Virus record (IMG/VR): IMGVR_UViG_2751185961_000010
Origin: a virus
Lineage: Duplodnaviria; Heunggongvirae; Uroviricota; Caudoviricetes
Length of the DNA: 8,956 nucleotides
Strand: one strand, 5' to 3'
Of this stretch, positions 4,634-5,536 are shown one piece after another. Position 1 is the first letter of the stretch. Every line of letters starts with the position of its first letter. Both the position numbers and the translations under genes were made by a program. Below the pieces are notes generated by a model. The model was given only the letters and a program-made list of their open reading frames with translations. It was not told the DNA's origin and did not search any database.

Positions 4634-4804
4634 ATGGCTGTATCTGCACGCCCTTACTTTGTCTGGCGCTTTATGCAGTGCCTGACAGGCAGCATTGCAA
4701 TATTCACCGTTACAGCTGCCACTGAGCGCGAAGCACGCGCGCAGCTGCCGCACGCACATCTGATTTTTGTCGCCCGTATCCGTCAGGAGGTGACTCATGC
4801 TTAA
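4634..4804 (+). CDS. hypothetical small protein (56 aa), first gene of the early operon
   Basis: GAGGAG 8 nt upstream of ATG 4634. In-frame continuation of tracked ORF 4286..4804, whose upstream part is judged non-coding. Stop overlaps the next start. Confidence 0.55.
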   Translation: MAVSARPYFVWRFMQCLTGSIAIFTVTAATEREARAQLPHAHLIFVARIRQEVTHA

Positions 4805-4982
4805 AACCTTCCGCGTCTTTTCCCGTGCTGTTAATAATCGCGGCTATACCGTTGGCATCACGCAGAACGTGAAGGCCGAAAACGTCCAGGCTGCAATCAG
4901 CACAGTAATTAACAAATCAGCTAAAGCCGGTTTATCCGGCGTAATTATCCACGCCGTTCATGAAATAAATGGGGTGCAGTAA
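4797..4982 (+). CDS. hypothetical small protein (61 aa)
   Basis: AGGAGG 6 nt upstream of the ATG; start overlaps the upstream stop and its own stop overlaps the next start (TAATG). Confidence 0.7.
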   Translation: MLKTFRVFSRAVNNRGYTVGITQNVKAENVQAAISTVINKSAKAGLSGVIIHAVHEINGVQ

Positions 4983-5185
4983 TGCAGGAAATAACACTGG
5001 CAGAAGCATCACTGAAAGCGCAGCAGGTCGAAGTAATCAGCCGCATGATTGAGCGCATGATAGAACGTAACCACGAAGAAATTGACGACCATGACCTTTC
5101 TGTTATTGCGGGACTGATTAAACAACTTTCCGCAAATGTGGCGGTATGGTTAATGACGGAGGAAGAAAAACGCGCTGAACAATAA
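4982..5185 (+). CDS. hypothetical small acidic helical protein (67 aa)
   Basis: Start codon overlaps the upstream stop (TAATG); composition typical of a small helical protein (MIERMIERNHEEIDDHDL...). Confidence 0.7.
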   Translation: MQEITLAEASLKAQQVEVISRMIERMIERNHEEIDDHDLSVIAGLIKQLSANVAVWLMTEEEKRAEQ

Positions 5186-5242
5186 CGGAGAAAAATAAAC
5201 AGGAAATAAAGATTAAGACGACGCCTTCAGGAGATTAATTAA

Positions 5243-5536
5243 ATGAAATCAAAAAATACTGGCTTAACTGCCAGTGGCAAAACTCAACCCGAATTTATGC
5301 GCGGGGATATTTACCGCGATAAGTACGGCGGCATCGTGATGATTATCAGCATGAGGGAACGGCGCATCACCTACCGCCGTGAAGGGTATGACTATGACTG
5401 CGTGATGCCTGTTTGTCAGTTCCGGCGTGATTTTTCCCTGGTGCAGGCCGTACCACGTCGTAGCCCAACCAGCAACAACAAAGCAAAGGCGCATGTTAAG
5501 GCCATGAAGAAGACGATCAGCAGAGGTAAGAAATGA
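5243..5536 (+). CDS. hypothetical small basic protein (97 aa)
   Basis: AGGAG 9 nt upstream of the ATG; stop overlaps the start of the next ORF (ATGA). Confidence 0.7.
   Translation: MKSKNTGLTASGKTQPEFMRGDIYRDKYGGIVMIISMRERRITYRREGYDYDCVMPVCQFRRDFSLVQAVPRRSPTSNNKAKAHVKAMKKTISRGKK

Follow-up and report, generated by a model that had tools for sequence, protein, structure and literature searches.

The four small ORFs (ORF1 to ORF4) at 4634–5536 of the 8,956-nt stretch of DNA analyzed here (the window) are very probably the promoter-proximal genes of an immunity-controlled early (replication) operon, regulated by antisense RNA, of an E. coli satellite. The operon is an ordinary case of a design already known, because ORF1 is a Kil/Icd homologue, ORF2 to ORF4 belong to conserved families and the satellite is a known one.

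E. coli ED1a carries an island of the layout int-alpA-Rha-primase-SSB that matches the window at 99.85% identity, so the lineage is not uncharacterized, as an earlier note on this DNA had supposed. The source element is an already known phage satellite of E. coli, of the Gram-negative PICI or P4-related kind. int, alpA, Bro-type regulators and primase/rep with an adjacent ori were found in an element of about 10–15 kb, as in Gram-negative PICIs, for which an int/alpA/Bro/primase/SSB layout has been described (PMC10111431). The likeness to the EcCICFT073 and EcCIED1a elements (PMC6092414, PMC10111431) extends to int, alpA, a Bro/Rha zone with C4/isrK RNAs, primase and SSB; it holds at the level of type and does not equate the ED1a island with the named EcCIED1a. 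C4 and isrK matches are found in several such PICIs (PMC10111431). Unlike them, the ED1a copy has no identified packaging-redirection or capsid genes; neither rpp, capsid, terminase nor any other packaging-redirection gene was recognized in it. The sid, delta and psu genes, which P4 itself carries, are missing from the gene calls for the complete ED1a island, so it is not a P4-like satellite sensu P4. The downstream part of the island holds MFS, oxidoreductase and antiterminator-Q genes. When aligned to ED1a, the window copy looks degenerate, with frameshifts in the Eta-like frame and in the primase, and an inserted IS1. Given the two frameshifts and the IS1, the operon may no longer work in the window's own genome as described below.

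The genes of the operon and the adjoining repeats are as follows.
4634–4804, plus strand: ORF1, 56 aa, Icd/Kil family (NF033153, similarity to P1 Icd, profile link to P4)
4797–4982, plus strand: ORF2, 61 aa, basic (pI 10.5), narrow family phrog_3672, predicted beta-beta-alpha-beta fold
4982–5185, plus strand: ORF3, 67 aa, acidic (pI 4.6), phrog_1478, assumed helical from its sequence
5243–5536, plus strand: ORF4, 97 aa, DUF4222, its stop overlapping the primase start
5533–7361, plus strand: primase-helicase with D5_N/DUF5906/Pox_D5 (Pfam), last gene of the operon, intact at 606 aa in ED1a
7366–7605, both orientations: cluster of TGTTCACC iterons, putative replication origin

The ORF listing reproduced exactly the four same-strand frames of 56, 61, 67 and 97 aa described in the earlier note and their placement between a leader (isrK and C4 RNAs, 5’) and the replication genes (primase, 3’). 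The ribosome-binding sites that it had reported were found as Shine-Dalgarno (SD) sequences for all four ORFs, among them those of ORF1 (GAGGAG at 4620–4625, 8 nt ahead of the ATG), ORF2 (GGAGG) and ORF4 (AGGAG). Its claim of stop/start overlaps applies to three junctions: ORF2 overlaps the end of ORF1 by 8 nt (ATGCTTAA), ORF3 is joined to ORF2 via TAATG, and the ORF4 stop overlaps the primase start in an ATGA at 5533. ORF3 and ORF4, however, are separated by a 57-nt gap. The same note had recognized none of the four proteins, whereas profile searches matched all of them, with ORF1 being Icd-like (NCBIfam, RefSeq) and ORF4 a Pfam DUF4222 protein.

The four ORFs exceed what chance would give, because all match profile families, identical ORF3 and ORF4 proteins are present on hundreds of E. 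coli contigs, and dN/dS is below 1 for each. Pairwise values, taken against diverged E. coli alleles, were 0.21–0.40 for ORF1, about 0.65 for ORF2 (few substitutions, mostly in a replaced C-terminal tail), 0.12–0.13 for ORF3 and 0.30–0.51 for ORF4. PDB sequence searches with all four gave nothing below E=0.25, and a PADLOC search gave no match. In the case of ORF2 and ORF3, very short frames with very few distant homologues and no Pfam family, one or both could be chance open frames in untranslated spacer. This is very improbable in view of their strong SDs and precise stop/start coupling, their PHROG matches (ORF2 to phrog_3672, E=1e-23; ORF3 to phrog_1478, E=2e-17), the dN/dS of 0.12 for ORF3 and the annotation of both in RefSeq. 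ORF2 in addition has homologues of the same length at 47–62% identity and a weaker, partial match in Raoultella (first ~22 residues only, E=4e-6), and its AF2-predicted structure is confident and compact. An exhaustive phmmer search of 1.84 billion representatives with ORF2 returned six matches, one of them a spurious repeat protein.

ORF1 matched the NCBIfam model NF033153 (phage_ICD_like) at 53.4 bits (cut-off 25, E=1.9e-14) and P1 Icd at 50% identity over 44 aa (E=5e-8, local database); RefSeq names its O157 orthologue Icd-like. The family motif RP.F.WRF ... A.TE.EAR ... VFAARIR, common to P1 Icd, is kept across genera at 35–45% identity. A profile built from the family alignment scored P1 Icd at 79 bits and, among 1,048 ORFs searched, a 65-aa ORF of P4 at 21.7 bits (E=7e-6). 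This ORF lies 3’ of the P4 CI RNA, and we take it to be kil. Because direct BLASTP of ORF1 against the P4 ORF gave nothing significant, the link to P4 is made by the profile only. The match of the P4 ORF to the Icd profile identifies ORF1 as a kil/icd homologue, and P4 kil appears from this comparison to belong to the Icd family. ORF1 also has the position of an Icd/Kil gene, being the first translated ORF 3’ of the C4/CI RNA with its SD within target site b2. Riedel et al. in 1993 and Forti et al. in 1999 are said to have reported cellular phenotypes for P1 Icd and P4 Kil. Kil is described elsewhere as a protein that ‘functions in cell killing’ (PMC10111431). As an Icd/Kil-family protein, ORF1 is predicted to arrest host division or be toxic when expressed.

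Conservation of the motif together with the dN/dS of ORF1 argues for selection on the protein. This, and the phenotypes reportedly caused by P1 Icd and P4 Kil, make it improbable that ORF1 is only a translated leader, opening the mRNA or preventing termination while its peptide has no function here. Such a role would agree with the P1 annotation, where icd translation is ‘apparently required for expression of ant’, and with Gifsy-1 orf45, which works by translational coupling and varies in amino acids while its nucleotides are conserved (PMC4825925).

Upstream of ORF1, searches for structured RNAs, target sites and terminators located the following elements, which are traversed by a long reading frame.
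3507–4804, plus strand: Eta/‘Ash’-like long reading frame across the leader, its stop being the ORF1 stop
4380–4385, plus strand: putative -10 hexamer TATACT of a leader promoter, read by eye, 6 nt before the isrK model match begins
4391–4467, plus strand: isrK / P4-seqA-like leader RNA (Rfam RF01394, 52.1 bits, GA 50)
4414–4423, plus strand: target site a1, GATTGGCCTC, inside the isrK-like RNA (site search)
4432–4439, plus strand: target site b1, GTTAGAGG, inside the isrK-like RNA (site search)
4448–4461, plus strand: stem of the intrinsic terminator of the isrK-like RNA, with a T-run to 4467 (terminator scan)
4492–4579, plus strand: C4/CI-type antisense RNA (Rfam RF01695, 73.8 bits, GA 45)
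4536–4543, plus strand: C4 loop b’, CCUCUAAC, in a hairpin loop of the predicted fold
4551–4558, plus strand: C4 junction a’, AGGCCAAU, unpaired in the predicted fold
4582–4625, plus strand: second target pair, a2 at 4582–4591 (GATTGGCCTC) and b2 at 4616–4624 (GTCAGAGGA)

The C4 RNA has the secondary structure of its family, with a predicted fold of -40 kcal/mol (z=-5.4). Its a’ and b’ segments are complementary to both target pairs, a1/b1 upstream and a2/b2 downstream, with one mismatch at b2 (GTCAGAGGA as compared to the perfect complement GTTAGAGGA). Site b2 overlaps the GAGGAG of ORF1. The 10-mer GATTGGCCTC is present in exactly two copies in the window versus 0.01 expected, one on each side of C4, and GTYAGAGG in three versus 0.28 expected, at b1, b2 and, on the opposite strand, b’. 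Eight elements were compared (the window, an O157 island, two tandem leaders of locus L007, an Stx2 phage, a Punavirus, P1 and P4). The a’/b’ segments differ among them and the a1/b1/a2/b2 sites change in step, giving seven specificities, each internally complementary; b2 adjoins a GGAG SD in all eight. Similarity of phage DNA to the window is confined to this isrK-C4 leader, and tblastn against 50,697 phage records found no match to ORF1 or ORF3 and only a weak one, in mEp390, to ORF4. Twelve non-E. coli loci with an Icd-like ORF contained no C4 or isrK RNA at the Rfam gathering score, only the int-alpA RNA. Either the association of Icd with C4 is not universal, or the RNAs of these loci have diverged past the models.

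The most likely mechanism, by analogy, is one like that of P1 immI and the P4 left operon. A consensus promoter scan gave no full sigma-70 site for the leader, and a transcription start at about 4391 is therefore only inferred from the hexamer. Transcription from near this position would either stop at the isrK-type terminator (4448–4467) or read through the C4/CI RNA (4492–4579). Pairing of C4 a’/b’ with a2/b2 would then occlude the SD of ORF1 and prevent its translation. The untranslated RNA would be terminated or silent, by Rho-dependent polarity as in P1 and P4, since ORF1, ORF2 and ORF3, and likewise ORF4 and the primase, are coupled by overlapping stops and starts. With ORF1 untranslated and the downstream RNA silenced, ORF2 to ORF4 would be off and a resting island would make no primase. 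Across ORF1 and the start of ORF2 (4680–4850), C exceeds G only mildly, which gives no evident rut site. On induction, transcription and translation from upstream would traverse the leader and override C4, by a proposed route from alpA through the Rha-like genes into the Eta/Ash-like frame that holds ORF1; ORF1 to ORF4 and then primase would be produced in order.

Because the long frame stops at the ORF1 stop, ORF1 is nested within it in the same frame, as P4 eta and kil are nested genes (PMC10111431). ED1a has the frame as a single 432-aa ORF with a Pfam Phage_ASH match. A 1-bp deletion at 4250, located by alignment, splits it in the window into 3507–4274 and 4286–4804, and it is doubtful that 3507–4274 is truly coding. 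The Phage_ASH match falls on DNA that encodes the isrK and C4 RNAs.

The immI region of P1/P7 shares a1, b1, the C4 RNA, a2, a b2 over the SD, and an Icd-family ORF that ends across the start of the following gene. The P1 record annotates this order as a1-b1-c4-a2-b2-icd-ant, with b2 repressing translation. In P1, however, icd is followed by the antirepressor gene ant, whereas the window has three small ORFs and a primase; the a’/b’ specificity sequences also differ, and the P1 a1/b1 segment scores as c4-a1b1, as compared to an isrK RNA with its own terminator in the window. A Punavirus leader is 84% identical to that of the window and is then followed by icd. Stx-phage leaders are 76–77% identical to it. 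In the Salmonella Gifsy-1 isrK-orf45-anrP and Stx-phage loci, an isrK sRNA/terminator and a downstream C4-type RNA likewise govern translation of the first ORF, and the following gene is coupled to it (PMC4825925), but the controlled gene is antirepressor-like (anrP, or a 215-aa ORF), and neither an Icd ORF nor replication genes are present.

In the P4 immunity region, Rfam likewise places an isrK match ahead of a C4 match, both 5’ of the 65-aa ORF. This ORF, the first to be translated downstream of the RNA, is Icd-like, lies within a long ‘Ash/Eta’ ORF read in the same frame, and shares 8 nt with the gene after it, just as ORF1 does with ORF2. Next come three small genes and the primase, the P4 left operon being PLE - seqA - CI RNA - seqC - kil/eta - epsilon - orf151 - cnr - alpha. 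In P4, CI pairs with seqA, kil lies within eta, and eta translation prevents termination (PMC10111431). The suggestion that the four ORFs occupy the place of the small genes of P4 holds for ORF1 as kil/icd homologue and for ORF2 to ORF4 as to slot (epsilon, orf151, cnr), but fails as to homology, since BLASTP of the three against epsilon, cnr and orf151 gave E >0.1 throughout. No Pfam match linked ORF2 to ORF4 to P4 epsilon (PF25738; best BLASTP E=0.89), which itself scores 170 bits, or to P4 Cnr (PF17345 DUF5375; best BLASTP E=0.12). A GDIYR...F.R.F resemblance of ORF4 to P4 orf151, seen by eye, is unsupported (BLASTP E=0.21, hhalign 7.6%, no DUF4222 match in orf151). P4 also differs in its 777-aa alpha; the island primase is shorter, with Pfam D5_N, DUF5906 and Pox_D5 only (606 aa, ED1a).

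These results point to a widespread E. coli PICI-type island with its replication operon under a P1/P4-type antisense-RNA/Icd-Kil switch, which accounts for the ‘Ash family’ and ‘Icd-like’ labels that recur in annotations. Their main use is in annotation, and current understanding is not overturned. Two leads are the consistent coupling of DUF4222 to this primase type and the co-travel of ORF2 and ORF3; ORF2 to ORF4 gain interest only if experiment assigns them a helper-directed or replication-control role.

The ORF2 and ORF3 families are almost restricted to E. coli, and the two genes are together in every E. coli island examined. They are lineage-restricted small proteins that may act as a pair. 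That they form a two-protein cargo module, such as a toxin-antitoxin-like or inhibitor-chaperone pair, is a more specific and unlikely reading. Their opposite charges at pH 7 (+4.7 for ORF2, -7.3 for ORF3), the TAATG coupling and their co-occurrence are in keeping with it, as is a Raoultella scottii locus where an ORF2-like gene precedes a small acidic ORF, helical-looking by eye. However, searches of Pfam, NCBIfam, PADLOC and the PHROG annotations matched no toxin-antitoxin or defence family. In O157-type islands the ORF3-type gene has been duplicated without ORF2, and a fusion of the two (P0013) is only apparent, consisting of ORF2 and a 25-aa ORF3 remnant. ORF2 was also considered as a diverged Icd paralogue on account of a beta-beta-alpha-beta arrangement similar by eye; this was rejected at an hhalign probability of 0.08%.

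ORF4 matched Pfam DUF4222 (PF13973) at 84 bits (cut-off 27) over model positions 1–53 of 53, and every homologue listed carries the DUF4222 label, in its name or from precomputed Pfam. It is predicted to form an SH3/Tudor-like beta-barrel (residues about 20–70) followed by a basic helix at the C-terminus (net charge about +15). In five or more genera, DUF4222 adjoins the start of the primase. Among 75 primase-anchored loci spanning Enterobacterales and Orbales, 22 have a same-strand Icd-like ORF at 0.5–1.9 kb 5’ of the primase, and in nine of these DUF4222 adjoins the primase start. The region from icd to the primase is highly variable and contains two to five small coupled ORFs, drawn from many unrelated PHROG families without functional annotation. 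In O157-type islands a 40-aa ORF4 remnant precedes an intact primase, so DUF4222 is not essential for the O157-type primase. We consider ORF4 most likely to be a replication accessory or regulator that would act with the primase or the origin.

Alternatively, one or more of ORF2 to ORF4 could be helper-manipulating or anti-defence effectors (an epsilon-like derepressor, interference, anti-restriction) and not replication accessories. We regard this as possible but lean against it. The P4 slots that they fill, the variability of the icd-primase cassette, a pattern typical of arms-race loci, and the near restriction of ORF2 and ORF3 to E. coli agree with such roles; the lack of homology of the three to epsilon, cnr and orf151 and of any PADLOC match does not, and the position of ORF4 relative to the primase, fixed across genera, is a better fit to the replication role. 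More speculatively, the ORF2–ORF4 block might be a general satellite ‘effector cassette’, with DUF4222 a Cnr-analogous but unrelated primase/origin-binding regulator and ORF2-ORF3 a new helper- or host-directed factor (derepressor or anti-defence), a proposal that we offer tentatively.

In the window, an 8-bp tandem duplication (CAGGTATA) at 5822–5829 breaks the primase gene into parts of 140 and 498 aa. Judging from their position, the iterons probably form the replication origin that the primase serves; origins colocalize with primase and SSB genes in such elements (PMC10111431). In a lambdoid phage, DUF4222 was observed immediately upstream of the ORF at the lambda O position.

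The four small genes claimed at 4634-5536 were present as described, both in the ORF listing and in the sequence.

4634-4804, plus strand: ORF1, 56 aa; Shine-Dalgarno sequence (SD) GAGGAG, 8 nt from its end to the ATG
4797-4982, plus strand: ORF2, 61 aa; SD GGAGG, 8-nt overlap with the ORF1 stop
4982-5185, plus strand: ORF3, 67 aa; TAATG junction with ORF2
5243-5536, plus strand: ORF4, 97 aa; SD AGGAG, preceded by a 57-nt AT-rich gap

The next gene is a primase by its D5_N, DUF5906 and Pox_D5 domain matches, and its ATG overlaps the ORF4 stop (ATGA at 5533). ORF1-4 are real genes: each has a profile-family match, proteins identical to ORF3 and ORF4 are found on hundreds of E. 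coli contigs, and dN/dS, measured against diverged alleles, stays below 1 for every one of them. The clearest value is that of ORF3 (0.12) and the weakest that of ORF2 (about 0.65, with few changes behind it). Overlapping stop/start junctions also form an unbroken chain at 2060-4274 (2060-2575, 2568-3305, 3292-3510 and 3507 onward). In the E. coli ED1a island the same chain runs on through ORF1-3, breaks at the 57-nt ORF3-ORF4 gap and resumes from ORF4 into the primase. Given this chain in the two sequences, the genes from just past alpA to the primase resemble a single, almost continuous series of coupled ORFs.

The earlier note placed these genes in the position of P4 kil, eta, cnr and epsilon and found none recognisable. 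The positional analogy was right, but two of the four genes can be recognised, and the kil-like gene among them is ORF1. ORF1 scores 53.4 bits against NCBIfam phage_ICD_like (cut-off 25), has 50% identity with P1 Icd across 44 aa, and can be aligned to Icd-like ORFs from many genera by the common motif RP.F.WRF...A.TE.EAR...VFAARIR. Among 1,048 ORFs searched, the profile of this alignment matches a 65-aa ORF after the P4 CI RNA (MATTLTPSHPEFVFVF..., E=7e-6), which we take to be kil. In P4, kil is reportedly a toxic gene under immunity control that encodes 65 aa and is the first to be translated after PLE. Kil has been described as a truncated form of Eta with a role in cell killing (PMC10111431). 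A long ORF bearing a Pfam Phage_ASH match (432 aa in ED1a) contains ORF1 in frame as its last part, the same arrangement as that of kil in P4. Judged from the family matches, the P4 profile match and this nesting, ORF1 is the kil/icd gene of the element.

Two Rfam RNAs and two sets of complementary sites lie upstream of ORF1.

4391-4467: isrK RNA (Rfam, 52.1 bits)
4414: target site a1, GATTGGCCTC, within isrK, ahead of the terminator
4432: target site b1, GTTAGAGG, within isrK, ahead of the terminator
4448-4461, with T-run to 4467: intrinsic terminator stem (terminator scan)
4492-4579: C4 antisense RNA (Rfam, 73.8 bits), directly upstream of ORF1
4582: target site a2, GATTGGCCTC, 3' of C4
4616: target site b2, GTCAGAGGA, 3' of C4, overlapping the ORF1 SD

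The predicted C4 fold (-40 kcal/mol, z=-5.4) places b' (CCUCUAAC) in a hairpin loop and a' (AGGCCAAU) in an unpaired junction, and the complements of both occur inside isrK and again after C4. The window holds exactly two copies of the 10-mer GATTGGCCTC, where 0.01 would be expected, and three of the b motif, where 0.28 would be. The P1 record annotates the same a1-b1-c4-a2-b2-icd-ant order, and the P4 immunity region likewise scores as isrK plus C4. By its sequence, this leader is an antisense immunity module of the P1/P4 type. Target sites were compared in eight elements (the window, an O157 island, two tandem leaders of a related E. coli island, an Stx2 phage, a Punavirus, P1 and P4). Between them a' and b' differ, all four target sites change to match, and a GGAG SD adjoins b2 in every case. 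This covariation gives the antisense mechanism strong comparative support. The tandem leaders (8923-9820 of their island, L007) are two leader-C4-icd units with differing a'/b' specificities, one of them P4-like, and would give dual immunity.

The mechanism most likely follows the P1 and P4 pattern. C4 would pair with a2 and b2 and block translation of ORF1; the untranslated coupled operon would then be prematurely terminated or silenced, which would prevent primase production. Once the island is induced, transcription from upstream together with translation through the Eta-like frame would override the C4 block, and ORF1, putatively toxic, would be made first, followed by ORF2-4 and then the primase. 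The sequence comparisons show the RNA elements with their complementarity and covariation, the family of ORF1 and the coupled gene layout, from which termination, induction and toxicity are inferred. This is a known design, P1/P4-type control ahead of a primase, in an element whose ORF1 and lineage are both recognisable.

The Eta-like frame and features that lie within its span are as follows.

3507-4804: long Eta/'Ash'-like ORF, running through the leader to the ORF1 stop and split by a deletion at 4250
3611-3889 and 3986-4165, minus strand: tandem small ORFs of 92 and 59 aa
3898-3950 and 4174-4226: two copies of a 53-nt repeat, one preceding each minus-strand ORF

The Phage_ASH (PF10554) match maps to the DNA encoding isrK and C4 (window about 4379-4640), as seen in ED1a (L005 8525-9823) and P4 (L002 8171-8821). 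Because of this location, the conservation behind the 'protein family' may be in large part that of the RNA genes. Where the minus-strand ORFs overlap the Eta-like frame, its amino-acid composition looks non-protein-like. These ORFs share a related C-terminus (K.FALE.FL.K.PRRL..KNR) and had no match in Pfam, PHROG or PADLOC; their O157 island equivalent is annotated in RefSeq.

Across loci, the icd-to-primase interval varies in content, with 2-5 small coupled ORFs per cassette that come from many function-unknown PHROGs. ORF2-4 showed no resemblance to P4 epsilon, orf151 or cnr and no defence-family match, and this analysis gave no supporting evidence for a helper-directed function. ORF3 is acidic, looks helical by its sequence, belongs to phrog_1478 and is essentially confined to E. 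coli; it is duplicated in O157-type islands. ORF4 is a DUF4222 protein. This family was present in 9/75 primase-anchored loci, spread over Escherichia ruysiae, Raoultella, Kluyvera, Citrobacter and Pectobacterium, and each time its gene stopped at the primase start or close to it. A weak homologue in phage mEp390 (43% over 42 aa, E=8e-4) adjoins, on the upstream side, an ORF in the lambda O position. These positions suggest a replication-linked role. However, DUF4222 is reduced to a 40-aa remnant in O157-type islands. Directly downstream of the primase, at least 12 copies of the iteron TGTTCACC in both orientations (7366-7605) likely mark the island's replication origin.

The lineage, previously called uncharacterised, is recognisable, as window 99-8723 is 99.85% identical to the ED1a island (CU928162.2). 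That island carries, in order, int, alpA, a 171-aa ORF, a Rha-like ORF, a 72-aa ORF, the long 'Phage_ASH' ORF, the same ORF2, ORF3 and ORF4, an intact 606-aa primase, a 149-aa ORF, SSB, cargo genes and an antiterminator-Q gene. In its integration / Bro / replication layout it corresponds to the Gram-negative PICIs, a kind of phage satellite island (PMC10111431; PMC11773190). The Rfam int-alpA RNA (RF02996) occurs in related islands of other genera (L011 1343-1410, L013 631-699, L060 138-208), but the window gave no reported match to it at E<=1. Alignment with the ED1a allele as reference gave four differences.

4250: 1-bp deletion, splitting the Eta/'Ash'-like ORF
4624: A-for-T change inside the ORF1 SD
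5822-5829: 8-bp tandem duplication CAGGTATA, frameshifting the primase into 140-aa and 498-aa pieces
after 8723: IS1 insertion; 8724-8956 is the IS1 left end (GGTAATGCTGCCAACTTACTGAT...) and the start of InsA

The IS1/InsA stretch stands in place of ED1a sequence and interrupts the island. The frameshifted primase is either a pseudogene or a sequencing error. Should immunity-insensitive read-through depend on translation of the Eta-like frame, as it does in P4, the present copy may be locked off. Just past SSB, 8560-8713 matches group II intron domains D1-D4 (Rfam, 67 bits) and is probably an intron fragment; the ED1a copy also carries this match.
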